Origin: Eledone cirrhosa
Taxonomy: Eukaryota
Assembly: GCA_964016885.1 (NCBI GenBank)
Contig: OZ024755.1
Coordinates: forward strand, 25,296,001-25,360,000
Length of the DNA stretch: 64,000 nt
Direction: 5' to 3'
The translations under genes were made by a program, and so were the position numbers. Position 1 is the first letter of the stretch, and each line of letters begins with the position of its first letter. Positions 2,342 through 46,887 of the stretch are shown piece by piece. The notes under the pieces were generated by a model. The model saw only the letters and a list, made by a program, of their open reading frames with translations. It had not been told where the DNA came from and made no database searches.

Positions 2342-2428
2342 AGATGAGATTCTACAGGACTCTACATTCTGCTATGTATTGAGTACCTTACTTACTGTGG
2401 TTACCTCCGATTTAACCCGGAATAACGT
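2342..2428 (+). mobile_element. (TA)n-embedded element tail with ACTC/GAGT stem
   Basis: gACTCtacat-tctgct-atgta-tt-GAGTACct, flanked by TA tracts on both sides. Confidence 0.55.
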
Positions 2429-3112
2429 ATATATATATATATATATATATATAATTCAAGAAAGAAGATTGACATGGTTCGCTATACAATAAGGGCTTTA
2501 TTCACATTGCTGACAATTGTTTCTTTGATCTGGAAAAGGGGTAAGGTTCTATACAAAACAGAGGTCATAGAAAAAAACGTAAGAATGGAAACAGCACCGA
2601 AATATATATATATATATATATATTTTTTTTTTCTTCTTTGATCCGTCAAAGTGACATTATTGAAAAAAGGAGAACAATTTTTAAAAAGGGGAGTTTTATA
2701 ATGTATATAGAATATATAAAATATTACCGGTTTCGATGTAATCCATCTAATCAAATATTAAATATTACAATTAAAATTTTAAAAAGAATTAAAAGAATGT
2801 TGAAGGTCTGTTCATATTTCATGTTGGGAGGCAGACTGGGTCTTAGAAAAAGAGCCTTATATACATATAGAGGTAGCTAGATAGATATAATATATATTCT
2901 GCTTAGATGTCCAAAGATTGACTGATGAAAAGGGACTGTCCGTTTTATCGTTGTCTTTGTCCTGTGCACCCTCTGTTTTGGATTTGTATATATATATGTA
3001 CTAACTTTTCGCACCATTGAGTACTTTCTGGCTACCTTAAACTACTCGATTGGTATCTGCTATACTGCGGCTACAACTTCGATTTATGCCTATGCCTATT
3101 ACTATTATTATT

Positions 3113-3210
3113 AACCCCGCCGAGGTTAACTTTGCCATTCATCCTTGATAAATATAAGTACCAGTAATGCGCTGGGTAATTGCTAGCCTTGTGACAAAAA
3201 GTAGAAATGT
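3113..3210 (+). mobile_element. SINE S1, 5'-truncated
   Basis: cccgccgaggttaactttgcc...gtaccagtaatgcgctgggtaattgctagccttgtgacaaaaagtagaaa. Confidence 0.8.
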
Positions 3211-3487
3211 TTATTATTATTATTACTATTATATATATATATATATATATATATATATATATATATATATATATATATATATATATATATATACATATCT
3301 ATATACGCATATATATATATATATATATATATATATATATATATATATATATATATATATATATATATATATATATATACATATCTATATACGCATATAT
3401 ATATATATATATATATATATATATATATATATATATATATATATATATATATATATATATATATATATATTTATACATATACATATA

Positions 3488-3550
3488 TAGTGAAAAATGG
3501 AACGGGAACAAAACAGAGAGGCAGTACGAACAAAGGTTTATTAGTTTCAC
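3488..3550. mobile_element. (TA)n-embedded island family E
   Basis: gaacgggaacaaaacagagaggcagtacgaacaaaggtttatt recurs at 35324-35385, also next to TA. Confidence 0.6.
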
Positions 3551-3569
3551 ATATATATATATATATATG

Positions 3570-3632
3570 TAGGAAAAGAGTCAGGACCCCGACGCAGAGT
3601 TCCGGCCGTTTCGACAGCTAGATCCGAACTTG
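3570..3632 (-). mobile_element. Family A2 element, inverted arm only
   Basis: taggaaaagagtcaggaccccgacg...ccggccgtttcgacagctagatccgaac, matching 5212-5269. Confidence 0.7.
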
Positions 3633-4149
3633 TGTTATATATATATATATGATATAATGAGCCAGACAATTAGCTATCGCCTAGGGTTTAGAAAACGGCG
3701 AGCGAGCAGAATTTGGAAATTGAATTTCCGTAATTCGAAATATATACTCTTTGTGCTTTTACAGGTTTCTGAAGTATATATTTTCGGGTCACACGACTTT
3801 CAAACACACACATACCCGAACATACACACACATACTCGAACATACACACACACACACATCCTGATATATATATATATCAGGATACACAAAGAAAAAAATT
3901 AAGATATATGTACCTATCTATTTTTCTTTGTGACTATCTGTTTGTGTGTGCGTATTTATGTTATGTCTGAGTGTGTGAGTGTGTGTGTATCTTTGAATGC
4001 GTATCTCTGCCTAGGTGTGTGTGTATGTGTGTGTTTGCATGTATGTATGTGTGTATGTGTGTGCCCTACTTGCTATCGGCAGTGTGCCTACACAGTCCAA
4101 AGAAGCGGTATTCTCCATCTTCTACGCACCACCACCACAGCTCTCTTAC

Positions 4150-4269
4150 CCCCTCTATCTGTAAATGTAGTAGCATCTGTTGGACGTTCATGAGGTTGTA
4201 TGGCGGCGGCGGCGGTGGTGGTGGTGGTGGAGGAGAGGTTATAAACGGCTGCTTGAGATTCTAAGTTAG
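4150..4269 (-). CDS. Possible 120-nt cassette exon (ANLESQAAVYNLSSTTTTTAAAAIQPHERPTDATTFTDRG)
   Basis: Minus strand ctgctctcAG acceptor, G|GTAAGA donor, open and frame-preserving; no recognisable homology. Confidence 0.15.
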
Positions 4270-4796
4270 CTGAGAGCAGCAGATACCACATTACAGGGCG
4301 AGAATTTATAGAGAGGAGTCAGTGAATTTTATTAACGAACAGAAACCTAGAGAAATATTGAGGGCGAACTGGAACACAGTAAATATTAAATAATAATGGG
4401 AATGGTACAAAACATGGCAAACTGGTTGAATGTCACTTTCTATTTCATATATACACAGCGTGTGACAACTATCTCTAAACATGGTCTCTCTCTCTCTCTC
4501 TTATATATATATATATATATATATATATATATATATATATATATATATATATATATATATATATATATATATATATATATATATATATATATATATATAT
4601 ATATATATATATATATATATATATATATATATATATATATATATATATATATATATATATATATATATATATATATATATATATATATTATATATATATA
4701 TATATATATATATATATATATATATATATATATATATATATATATATATATATATATATATATATATATATATATATATATATTATATATATATAT

Positions 4797-4996
4797 NNNN
4801 NNNNNNNNNNNNNNNNNNNNNNNNNNNNNNNNNNNNNNNNNNNNNNNNNNNNNNNNNNNNNNNNNNNNNNNNNNNNNNNNNNNNNNNNNNNNNNNNNNNN
4901 NNNNNNNNNNNNNNNNNNNNNNNNNNNNNNNNNNNNNNNNNNNNNNNNNNNNNNNNNNNNNNNNNNNNNNNNNNNNNNNNNNNNNNNNNNNNNNNN
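4797..4996. other. Assembly gap (200 N) inside a (TA)n tract
   Basis: Run of n flanked by (TA)n. Confidence 0.99.
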
Positions 4997-5211
4997 TATA
5001 TATATATGGAGAAGAAGTTTATGAAATGGAAATGCGGGTATAAAGAATTTATTAGGTAACAATTGTTTCTATAGTGTTTCTCCGGATTTTAAAACACACT
5101 TTATTATACGTTGAGCAATCTCTGACGTCGGTTGACTCCATCCAATGCAACTACTTAGTAACATTGGAATACAAATTTACTAATTCTCTCTCTCTCTATA
5201 TATATATATAT

Positions 5212-5370
5212 AGTAAGAGTAAGGAACCCGACGGCTGAGCTCCGGCAGTTTCGACAGCTAGATCCGAACGGGGCCCTGACTCTTTTCCTATTACCCACTC
5301 TACTACTCTTAAGTATTACGTACTCTGGTGCGTTATGGTCCACCTGGTTCCTTACCACACTTCCTTCGTT
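5212..5370 (+). mobile_element. Family A2 (TA)n-embedded fold-back element
   Basis: Body ttcctattacccactctactac..gtactctggtgcgttatggtccacctggttccttaccacacttccttcgtt with partial inverted arm; TA on both sides. Confidence 0.8.
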
Positions 5371-44750: not shown

Positions 44751-44786
44751 TACTATATATTATTACTATATATTATTACTATATAT

Positions 44787-45150
44787 AGGGCGGTGGATTG
44801 GCAGTATCGGTAGAGGGTCGGACGCCATGCTTTCCAGCATAGTTACGTCCCTTTACGATCTGAGTTCAAATCCCGCCGAGGTTGACTTTGCCTTTCATCC
44901 TTACGGGGTCGATAAAATAAAGTACCAGTAATGAACTGGTGATTGCTGGCCTTGTGCCTAAAGTAGAAACAATTATTACTATATATATTATTACTATATA
45001 TACATATAGAGCGGTGGATTGGCAGTATCGGTAGAAGGTCGGACGCCATGCTTTGACGCATAGAGTTAGGGCCCTTGCCATTCTGAGTTCAAATCCCGCC
45101 CAGGTACATTGGGTAATTGCTGGCCTTGTTTCCAAAGTAGAAACAATTAT
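44787..45150 (+). mobile_element. Two tandem SINE S1 copies (44787-44975 full; 45009-45150 internally deleted)
   Basis: Heads gcggtggattggcagtatcggtaga and tails gtagaaacaatt. Confidence 0.9.
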
Positions 45151-45189
45151 TAGTATATATATAGGGAGTAGGGCTTATAAGGGAACAGA

Positions 45190-45395
45190 TGAAGACTTCA
45201 AAAACATCATCTTTGTCCGATCCCTTGCCGTTTCAGTTTGGATTGCCTGGAGAACGTCATCTTATTACGTAATGAAGCTGTCTGCTGAGATCACGACACT
45301 AGTTCCGTGGAATCACGTGGCCACTGTCGTCATTGAAACATGTATCACAGCCTTATCAATACAGTACTTTAAAATCTCCAACTGCTTCGCAATCT
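45190..45395 (-). mobile_element. Possible RTE-like LINE fragment
   Basis: DVLQAIQTETARDRTKMMF weakly resembles the RTE C-terminal motif. Confidence 0.3.
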
Positions 45396-45647
45396 CTTAC
45401 ATATATATATATATATATATATATATATACACGTATATTAATGTTCGATATAACCCATGCGTACATATGTATATGTATATATATATATATATATGTGTGT
45501 GTGTGTGTGTGTGTGCATACTTACATTTATGTATCAGCTGTGCTATGGCGAGAAATACAAATCTAATTATATATATATAATTAAAATTTGATTTCTCGCT
45601 CTCACATAGCGAGTTACATAAATGTATTTATGAGTTGTATAATGATA

Positions 45648-45778
45648 ATAATAATATTCTATTCGTTTGCGAGCAAACAGCCTCATTGCACTGTTCTTTT
45701 ATCATCACCGGATGACGGTGATGATAAAAAACATACCGTAATTAGGCTGTTTGCTTGAAACGAATCGAATATTATTAT
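45648..45778. repeat. ~130-bp imperfect hairpin
   Basis: Loop gatga at 45711-45715; termini (aaacgaatcgaatattattat) shared with the 24721/25431 inverted repeat. Confidence 0.75.
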
Positions 45779-45786
45779 ATTTATTA

Positions 45787-46420
45787 GTTACGTCCCTTTA
45801 CAGTCTGAGTTCAAATCCCGCCAAGGTTAACTTTGCCTTTCATCCTTACAGGGTCGATAAAATAAAGTACCAGTAATGTACTGGGTAATTGCTGGCCTTG
45901 TGCCTAAAGTAGAAACAATTATATTTATTAGGTTAAGGGGCGGTGGATTGGCAGTATCGGTAGAGGGTCGGACGCCATGCTTTCCAGCATAGTTACGTCC
46001 CTTTACGATCTGAGTTCAAATCCCGCCGAGGTTGACTTTGCCTTTCATCCTTACGGGGTCGATAAAATAAAGTACCAGTAATGCACTGGGTGATTGCTGG
46101 CCTTGTGCCTAAAGTAGAAACAATTATATTTATTAGGTTATCTTTGCCTTTCATCCTTATGGGGTCGATAAAATAAAGTACCAGTAATACACTGGGTAAT
46201 TGCTGGTCTTGTGCCAAAAGTAGAAACAATTATATTTATAAGGATTGGCAGTATCGGTAAAGGGTCGGACGCTATGTTTTGCAGCATAGTTATGTTCCTT
46301 TACGGACTGAGTTCAAATCCCGCCGAGGTTAACTTTGCCTTTCATCCTTACGGGGTCGATAAAATAAAGTACCAGTAATGCACTGGTTAATGCTGGCCTT
46401 GTGCCAAAAGTAGAAACAAT
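45787..46420 (+). mobile_element. Head-to-tail stack of four SINE S1 copies
   Basis: Copies ~45787-45918, 45937-46123, 46136-46229, 46241-46419, each followed by aattatatttat. Confidence 0.92.
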
Positions 46421-46463
46421 TATATTTATTATTTGATACAAACCTCATATATATATATATATA

Positions 46464-46640
46464 ATAGGAACAGAGAGAGGGCCCTGACGGCTAAGTTCAG
46501 ATCTAGATGTCAAAACGACCGGACCTCAGCCGTCGGGGTCTTGGGTCCTGACTATTTTCCTATTACCCACTCTACTACCCCACGTATTGAGTACTGTTGT
46601 GCGTTAAGGTCCACCTGGAATCTTGCCACACCCTCTTTGT
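46464..46640 (+). mobile_element. Family A2 element, diverged
   Basis: Partial arm + gttcagatctagatgtcaaaacgaccgg + family A tail. Confidence 0.75.
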
Positions 46641-46683
46641 TATATATATATATATATATATATATATATATATATATATATAT

Positions 46684-46887
46684 ATAGGAACCAGTAAGAC
46701 CCCGACAGCTGAGCTCAAGCCGTTTCGACGGCTAATTCTGGACGTTTTAGTCCAGAATTAACCGTCGAAACGGCTTGAGCTCAGCTGTCGGGGTCTTACT
46801 GGTTCCTATTACCCACTCTACTACCCCAAGTATTGAGTACTTTGGTGCGTTATGGTCCACCTGGTTCCTTACCACATTTCCTTCGTT
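46684..46887 (+). mobile_element. Family A1 fold-back element (hairpin 46684-46809, loop gtttta)
   Basis: 60-bp arms + tail, inside (TA)n. Confidence 0.9.

Follow-up and report, generated by a model that had tools for sequence, protein, structure and literature searches.

A 64,000-nt stretch of the Eledone cirrhosa genome (assembly GCA_964016885.1, contig OZ024755.1, positions 25,296,001–25,360,000; hereafter the window, in whose own numbering coordinates are given) contains short fold-back elements that are inserted into (TA)n runs and carry a small bulged hairpin. These elements are 5′-truncated stubs of Penelope-like elements (PLEs, the group sister to telomerase), most likely belonging to the Hydra clade. 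The hairpin occurs twice per unit in complete Hydra-type elements and, judging from sequence comparisons, it probably acts as an RNA landmark that places the reverse transcriptase (RT) about five bases upstream of each copy. The paired hairpin is a genuine cis-element, apparently not described before, of a known class of retroelements.

The window is AT-rich (33.9% GC) and dense in microsatellites. The motif pattern gave 19 matches, compared to a mean of 3.1 and a maximum of 10 in 100 shuffled sequences, while a stricter structural scan gave 21 matches, compared to 0–1 in eight shuffles that left the microsatellites in place; 12 of these 21 lie no more than 70 nt from a (TA)n run. All the ACTC motifs listed in an earlier note on this DNA were found, with coordinates off by 0–3 nt. 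Outside the family designated A, they are located at 2359+, 22130+, 27767+, 29524+, 39847−, 40134− and 42179+, and within family A at 15287−, 30864+, 42004+, 46569+, 46815+, 53801− and 58259−. Three copies were absent from that note: 16149−, 2006− and 34008− (the last with GCTC/GAGC). The order of the window elements is (TA)n, inverted arm, direct arm, hairpin, 37–62 nt and (TA)n. In the 13 arm-bearing copies an inverted, 5′-truncated copy adjoins the direct copy, and the one-sided tail measures 66–89 nt in the eight arm-bearing copies whose arm end lies near the hairpin. The hairpins at 2359 and 16149 have no arm. Since seven further fold-backs of the window lack the motif, it is not universal among fold-backs.

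The hairpin has the consensus RCWC-Y..stem..R-UN-GWGY-RCU, in which UN is a 2-nt bulge on the 3′ side, a feature absent from the earlier note. Covariation was measured over 33 distinct hairpins, of which the window contributed 7, the motif-scan loci 12 and the protein-picked loci 14 (both kinds of loci are described below), by anchored permutation of the 3′ halves, the variable loops being not alignable by MAFFT. When the 3′ bulge is set to 2 nt, Watson-Crick pairing is seen in 80 of the 99 cells formed by the three inner pairs, compared to 35.3±4.8 in permuted sets (0 of 20,000); bulges of 0, 1 or 3 nt gave no pairing excess over permutation. The window hairpins alone gave 18 of 21 Watson-Crick inner pairs (p = 0.00035). 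The first inner pair is C-G in 19 hairpins and U-A in 13, the outer pairs vary as well (G-C/A-U, 26/7; U-A/A-U, 31/2), and the bulge begins with U in 31 of the 33. The claim that the ACTC/GAGT pair and the inner stems differ yet mostly stay complementary was upheld, as was the covariation on which the earlier note had staked its proposal.

The position of the hairpin relative to the inverted arm was determined for each copy, and the distances between arm end and ACTC are given below with the TA-like overlap excluded/included. In 10 of the 13 arm-bearing window copies, which represent only five families (six of the ten belong to family A), the arm ends 4–8 nt before ACTC, or 2–5 nt with the TA-like overlap: 15287 (8/5 nt), 27767 (7/5), 30864 (8/5), 39847 (7/2), 40134 (7/4), 42004 (7/5), 42179 (6/4), 46569 (4/3), 46815 (8/5) and 53801 (4/4). 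The exceptions are the copies at 22130 (13 nt, with a TA-like and ambiguous end), 58259 (25 nt) and 29524 (146 nt). The short offset previously reported at 27767, 39847, 40134 and 42179, and the 13 nt at 22130, were reproduced, but the offset ascribed to family A does not extend to its 58259 copy. Over all sets, 20 of 25 measured arms end 2–8 nt before the hairpin (window 10/13, motif-scan loci 1/3, protein-picked loci 3/3, and 6/6 new arms in host contigs of genome bin G001), in agreement with the proposal that the structure marks the end of the inverted arm. The arm search in G001 covered 70 nt upstream of the hairpin, and two weak rows were dropped from the arm count: L194 (score 30, locus edge, 53 nt) and the first L215 match (a tRNA-like repeat). 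L161c, cut by a locus edge, was counted once, as L200. For one arm truncated at a locus edge, the hairpin was the predicted end point, and the arm indeed stops 5 nt before it. Most junctions share 1–5 nt of TA-like sequence with the (TA)n target; at some ends (L163, L168, L200 and L221) the overlap is 0–1 nt.

Family A (46750–46896) was compared with two raw reduced-representation runs and two contig sets. Among the loose ends listed, those entering (AT)n fall at two places, 46809 and approximately 46886, and both junctions are encountered again and again in reads originating throughout the genome. The former, five bases before ACTC, was found in at least 3247 and at least 2832 reads per run and in at least 74 contigs, and a subfamily variant sharing this end contributed 418 and 554 further reads. 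The tail end near 46886 was found in at least 1257 and at least 1491 reads running into (AT)n. Among the variants listed, read variation concentrates in the loop and bulge, and the only stem variants are C>T (which would give U-G) and G>A, at about 3%. Read depth in a second organism (X4) is maximal on the hairpin. Read joints on opposite strands connect 46750 with 46828–46846. A pile of reads at 46756 was rejected as a junction; it coincides with an AATT site and is regarded as a library artefact. The fold-back centres of family A cluster at one place (46744–46750, 15353, 30799 and 58320). This place may correspond to loop II of a hammerhead, through whose helix II the two complementary DNA (cDNA) ends could anneal.

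Metagenome contigs were scanned with the motif RCTC..GAGY-RCT..(TA)7, in which pair identity, inner stem and hammerhead were left free. The scan revealed 116 loci in 6 of 64 collection parts (with full flanks for 80). Eleven of them have an upstream hammerhead core, and all 11 carry GCTC/GAGC, compared to 50 of 116 overall (hypergeometric p = 5e-5); here the hairpin is located 59–71 nt after GAAA and pairing is seen only at the 2-nt 3′ bulge. Many of the remaining loci are probably chance matches. Locus L078 contains two complete Hydra-type open reading frames (ORFs) of 705 and 702 aa (49% identity), with over 3,000 relatives. The motifs RWR, ADKT, CxCx5C, CxxC and CxH were recognized by eye in L078 and also in an alignment of 47 relatives; Pfam detected RVT_1 in 1/47 and GIY-YIG in 1/47 of these (weak support), and no sequence relative of the protein was found in PDB. 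PLE-type ORFs accompanied by the hairpin are present in L078, L159, L163, L167, L168, L169 and L225. In minimum free energy (MFE) folding, the window hairpin at 40134 was formed (z = −1.65).

Complete units have the order ORF end, hammerhead, first hairpin (HP1), 57–68 nt, second hairpin (HP2) and ATG. The paired-hairpin unit was found in 8/8 cases with an intact 5′ region: twice in L078, and in L159, L165, L166 (HP1 decayed), L167, L169 and L178/L225. Among the protein-picked loci, HP1 is present in 7/7 that reach far enough past the hammerhead, and HP2 precedes the ATG in 5/5 with an intact 5′ region; of the remainder, one stops at (AT)n, 42 nt past GAAA, one at a contig end, one is cut on the 3′ side, one holds the 5′ part only, and L170 was dropped as weak. 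MFE folding of L078 formed HP1 and not HP2. Partial tandems with pseudo-long terminal repeats (pseudo-LTRs) were identified in L078 (both elements), L159, L167, L169 and L225, and none in the window. In all four complete tandem units with a comparable genomic 3′ end, the tail end lies 6–8 nt (2–4 nt with overlap) before HP2. Because the tail end adjoins HP2 in every case, the tail equals the HP1–HP2 interval and its end is internal. The earlier note had one strand primed at the tail end; priming at a free RNA end is not supported, as the tail end lies 2–8 nt before a second hairpin (4/4) and both ends are internal. The lack of HP2 in the window stubs would follow from its position downstream of the base copied last.

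Several other features of these loci were observed. The two elements in L078 (1–5552) are complete, differ from each other and lie tail to tail with one (TA)n run in common. In L225 (1–2535), the first and last 141 bases are identical, and the assembly presents L178/L225 as a circular unit of 2394 bp, which may reflect either a tandem array or circular DNA. L068 (1740–2030, minus strand) contains a non-coding monomer of about 290 nt, flanked by TA runs, that carries both hairpins as well as a hammerhead and begins 6 nt before HP1; it is a retrozyme-like non-autonomous unit. A search with the alignment of 47 proteins gave twelve loci in prokaryote bins, evidently host DNA; these are the protein-picked loci. 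Several of the bacterial genome bins (L159–L170, G001–G005) hold animal-type retroelement contigs, pointing to host contamination; G001, among five bins searched, gave 37 matches to the hairpin pattern, compared to 2 for the reversed pattern. A single Hydra protein used as query revealed no relatives in prokaryote genomes, and no Hydra relatives were found in viral contigs, in which 38 pattern matches appeared to be chance or tRNA matches and a further scan gave 4 matches.

The features of the window elements are those of PLEs, namely an adjoining inverted, 5′-truncated copy, a one-sided tail and (TA)n targets (PMC8557442, PMC3846280; here and below, cited papers are represented by the portions of their text that were available). 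Insertion into (TA)n was observed for the window elements. Hammerhead cores, already known in PLEs (PMC4209133), gave 14 matches in the window compared to 2.2 expected, several of them upstream of hairpins. A full match to the type I hammerhead descriptor, with 6/6 pairs in helix I and a palindromic helix III, is located at 40239−, and cores were also found at 27660, 29418 and 15994; that of family A is only partial. Rfam gave no hammerhead match on 40052–40300. The hairpin at 40134 matches HP2 of L078 over 31 nt (90%, E = 4e-6); 17/17 inner bases are identical and the outer pair is switched. We infer that the window stubs are 5′-truncated or non-autonomous products of Hydra-type elements. The suggestion that the structure belongs to an RT/endonuclease system was supported: complete Hydra-type PLE ORFs carry the hairpin in their repeat unit. 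Binding of the hairpin by the RT or the endonuclease is presumed.

Hydra-clade elements as described (PMC8557442) share with the elements analyzed here the (TA)n target, a hammerhead near the 3′ end and a short ORF with a C-terminal endonuclease (EN), as well as the motifs RW(K/R), DKT and CxCx5C, as in L078. They differ in the tail, which was reported as 30–40 bp for EN-containing PLEs (PMC8557442), compared to 66–89 nt in the window and 57–68 nt between the hairpins. By eye, four of the six new consensus sequences in File S7 of that paper carry the hairpin. In Hydra-2_Amil, Hydra-2_Ajap and Hydra-1_Crog (the last with one mismatch) it follows the hammerhead by 31–39 nt and its outer pair is G-C. 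Hydra-1_Ajap begins with two hairpin copies about 61 nt apart, ahead of the ATG. The consensus of Hydra-1_Amil stops about 4 nt before the site where its relative L149 carries the hairpin.

Other assignments were rejected. The hammerheads and the linked ORFs with a C-terminal EN do not agree with Naiad or Chlamys PLEs, in which a canonical hammerhead is missing and the EN is N-terminal, and in their consensus files no GAGTRCT/GAGCACT place shows, by eye, a hairpin at the element end (22 + 22 such places in the whole PMC8557442 supplement, in which line breaks can hide some). The hairpin lies 37–62 nt inside the element end, the arms face each other head to head around centres that vary, and the unit is linked to a hammerhead and an RT ORF, all of which is at odds with both Helitron/Helentron ends and transposable elements of the miniature inverted-repeat type (MITEs). 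Helitron/Helentron ends have a terminal hairpin and CTRR, and MITEs have terminal inverted repeats at both ends. The hairpin is similar to a tRNA D-arm. In a tRNA D-arm or Pol III A box, however, an A follows the GCTC stem and GG is present in the loop; in the hairpin both features are missing, and RCWC is followed in 32/33 cases by a C or U that pairs across the 2-nt bulge. tRNA-like sequences do turn up as chance matches of the motif pattern.

The mechanism is likely to be programmed twin priming on the element RNA. The GIY-YIG domain would nick both strands of the self-complementary (TA)n target, and each 3′-OH would anneal to a short UA box ahead of one hairpin and prime cDNA synthesis toward the 5′ end of the RNA. 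The two cDNAs would then be joined head to head at their 3′ ends, giving an inverted arm, a direct arm and a tail, and near-perfect palindromes would arise when both reach the same RNA 5′ end. Insertion ends are located 2–8 nt 5′ of HP1 (site 1; inverted arm and tail-less ends) or HP2 (site 2; tail end), and within an insertion each arm reaches 5′ independently of the other. In L093, the inverted arm is joined without overlap to a direct copy beginning at site 1. Arm sequence missing from the direct copy is seen at 34428–34542 and 5218–5369, in L093 and in the read joints, and L168, L210 and L221 carry arms of 25–79 nt on far longer direct copies. Direct copies often start at site 1 (L093, L083, L167 and the L068 monomer). 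A bolder proposal, which we regard as tentative, is that the two tandem hairpins, each with one RT, fix both starts on a single transcript, so that tail length equals hairpin spacing and any RNA with the pair, a retrozyme monomer for instance, is insertable. If true, this would define a portable, sequence-defined cis-element for PLE retrotransposition, with analogues likely in other PLE clades.

The main rival to twin priming is that the hairpins act at the DNA level, the endonuclease recognizing them in single-stranded cDNA or element DNA and cutting the TA-rich box before each, in which case the ends are resolution cuts of a longer intermediate. Craig et al. assign the tail to EN-mediated resolution (PMC8557442), the EN of D. 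virilis Penelope needed the tail for recognition in earlier work cited by Frangieh et al. (PMC11167929), the boxes ahead of both hairpins resemble the (TA)n target, and the wobble pairs leave the strand unfixed. However, the two internal RNA sites at which purified Poseidon protein starts reverse transcription coincide with the ends of the genomic tail (PMC11167929), and non-overlapping inverted and direct parts meeting at site 1 (L093) are expected from two primers on one template, so that we consider cutting at the DNA level unlikely. It is still less probable that the hairpins serve translation start, RNA processing or packaging beside the hammerhead while the ends are set only by primer annealing to neighbouring UA-rich boxes. 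HP2 is indeed located 7–25 nt before the first ATG (7/7), and the TA-like overlap of most junctions would also fit; but the 3′ regions are AT-rich throughout and the ends nevertheless cluster in a 7-nt window at both hairpins, no ATG lies beside HP1, and some ends have 0–1 nt of overlap. The lowest probability is given to the inverted arm being a snap-back copy of the first cDNA, stalling at a protein-bound hairpin. Several stubs are near-perfect palindromes with spacers of 1–14 nt, and the clustered family A centres would also fit. Snap-back copying is disfavoured because the arms extend independently of the direct copies, both in carrying sequence that these lack and in covering only the last 25–79 nt of much longer ones; it leaves the tail end at HP2 unexplained and is largely refuted by the non-overlapping insertions.

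A number of observations count against placement of the RT by the hairpins or against the Hydra origin of the window stubs. The link between the window and Hydra draws on architecture, the shared hairpin and the 31-nt match, the sole sequence link found. No RT/EN remnant was detected in the window, either by Pfam (148 of 288 candidate frames) or with a Hydra profile against all six frames; no HP2 was seen there, and no clear hairpin is visible by eye in the published consensus of Hydra-1_Obim (PMC8557442). Five arms end elsewhere, at 13, 25, 31, 76 and 146 nt. The inverted arm of L164 begins at the tail end, an arrangement that requires either two RNAs or a second use of site 2; the two sites are therefore not strictly used once each. 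The reads ending at 46809 comprise inverted arms or solo tail-less copies, which are indistinguishable, and the loose-end counts refer to the listed rows, with 553 weaker rows outside them. As regards the hairpin itself, the outer pairs are partly imposed by the search patterns, the hairpin families are related rather than phylogenetically independent, family B has a C-A mismatch in two copies, and the usage of G-U versus A-C wobbles does not separate the RNA strand from the cDNA strand.

The inverted-copy-plus-tail shape of insertions and two internal RT starts have already been published for PLEs (PMC8557442, PMC11167929). In Poseidon of Anolis carolinensis (Frangieh et al. 2024), the PLE protein cuts and extends both target strands and starts at two internal RNA sites bounding the tail, and the AT-rich target and the involvement of a stem-loop are likewise shared with the elements described here (PMC11167929). 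The Poseidon starts, however, fall within the ORF, in an AC-rich stem-loop; no RCTC/GAGY hairpin occurs in the structure text of Fig. S1, and the available text defines no conserved or duplicated positioning element (PMC11167929). What is added here is a duplicated hairpin of about 20–35 nt with compensatory variants and a fixed offset of 2–8 nt, which makes the start-site question directly testable.

Twin priming of LINE-1 was reportedly described by Ostertag and Kazazian in 2001. In L1, synthesis starts at the poly(A) end and the second primer anneals at unprogrammed sites, whereas in Hydra-type PLEs each of the two sites has a fixed position next to a conserved structure, and overlap between the parts is frequent. 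Common to both, under programmed twin priming, is that the two target 3′ ends prime on one RNA, giving an inverted 5′ part (PMC2246262 for LINE-1). Non-LTR retrozymes are comparable in that they are short and non-autonomous, carry a hammerhead and presumably rely on the machinery of PLEs (PMC7229834, PMC7761336, bioRxiv 10.64898/2026.07.22.740005). Their repeats were described as having no conserved motif pointing to a partner element (PMC7761336); for the Hydra clade, we put forward the paired hairpin as a candidate. Neither the hairpin nor its duplication nor its offset from the two ends was found described in the literature, including the available parts of PMC8557442, PMC7229834, PMC7761336, PMC6765202 and bioRxiv 10.64898/2026.07.22.740005 (subscription papers, Repbase notes, figures and bioRxiv supplements were outside the scope of this search). 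The inverted-copy-plus-tail insertion of PLEs has been presented as an open problem (PMC8557442), and the in vitro system revealed two internal starts without defining what sets them (PMC11167929). If the hairpins do set RT starts, the pair would explain this shape. It also provides a rule for locating the true ends of Hydra-clade elements, since some published consensus sequences stop at site 1.

The family A stubs of the window are located at 15216–15410 (minus strand; inverted arm 15354–15410, direct arm, hairpin 15261–15287 and a tail to (TA)n), 30743–30929 (plus; hairpin 30864–30884 with an inner deletion), 41968–42075 (plus; inverted arm of 9–12 bp, hairpin 42004–42030), 46687–46886 (plus; the read reference, with arms 46687–46743 and 46750–46806 and hairpin 46815–46841), 53728–53901 (minus; hairpin 53775–53801) and 58188–58357 (minus; hairpin 58233–58259, a counter-example in its arm end). 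Variants of this family were identified at 3570–3631 (minus; solo and tail-less, beside TA runs, ending 7 nt before the expected hairpin start), 5218–5369 (plus; hairpin decayed, the inverted arm exceeding the direct copy by about 48 nt on the 5′ side), 34428–34542 (plus; non-overlapping parts, the inverted arm being joined to a direct copy that begins within the hairpin) and 46463–46640 (plus; short inverted arm, long direct copy, hairpin 46569–46595). Decayed family A-like hairpins are present at 9976–10004 and 9062–9145 (both minus), of which that at 10003 is not beside a TA run.

Family B is represented by a stub at 42087–42238 (plus; arms 42087–42122 and 42137–42172, hairpin 42179–42201), an armless hairpin at 16127–16149 (minus; AAGT variant with one pair broken) and a relative at 21971–22189 (plus; arms 21971–22030 and 22055–22116, hairpin 22130–22152). 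A 29-bp tail-to-tail inverted copy of the family B tail end (42209–42237 and 42286–42314) spans (TA)23.

The longest arms among the remaining stubs are those of 183 bp at 27389–27848 (plus; arms 27389–27571 and 27577–27759, hammerhead core 27660–27701, hairpin 27767–27789, tail 89 nt). A relative of this element at 29290–29608 (plus), with a nested short fold-back (29290–29377), a decayed hammerhead core (29418–29456) and a hairpin at 29524–29546, is a counter-example, as its arm falls short of the hairpin. The stub at 40052–40455 (minus) has 150-bp arms (40142–40291 and 40306–40455), the type I hammerhead core (40193–40239) and a hairpin at 40107–40134, and that at 39825–40013 (minus) has a hairpin at 39825–39847 and a short, diverged inverted arm at 40013. 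Three further hairpins were recorded: an HP1-type one at 2359–2387 (plus), 40 nt before (TA)n in a stub without an inverted arm; one with a long inner stem at 1970–2006 (minus), 50 nt before (AT)n; and the GCTC/GAGC hairpin at 33979–34008 (minus), with an outer G-C pair in place of A-U, 62 nt before (AT)27.

Searches of the window as a whole revealed no recognizable protein family (Pfam, 148 of 288 candidate frames) and, among the best 150 of 406 Rfam rows, only microsatellite-driven matches below the gathering score. The fold-backs without a hairpin include those at 21674–21957 and 48112–48420, whose unpaired tails (about 43 nt at 21915–21957) have in common the word GCTTCAA, which is similar to the tail of Poseidon as given in Fig. 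S1 of PMC11167929; these two probably represent another PLE clade. Inverted arms of 145 bp (24721–24865 and 25287–25431, 97%) are separated by 421 bp of expanded TA-rich repeats. An abundant, SINE-like, 180-bp interspersed repeat family, unrelated to the hairpin elements, occurs at 44780–46430, 7082–7268, 28875–29060, 38630–38821, 48590–48767, 50687–50883 and 52169–52460. Minisatellite arrays, some of them inverted, are located at 7796–8408, 11299–14560, 19380–20760 and 36272–37335 (60-bp, CAC/GTG-rich, 57-bp and 39-bp units).

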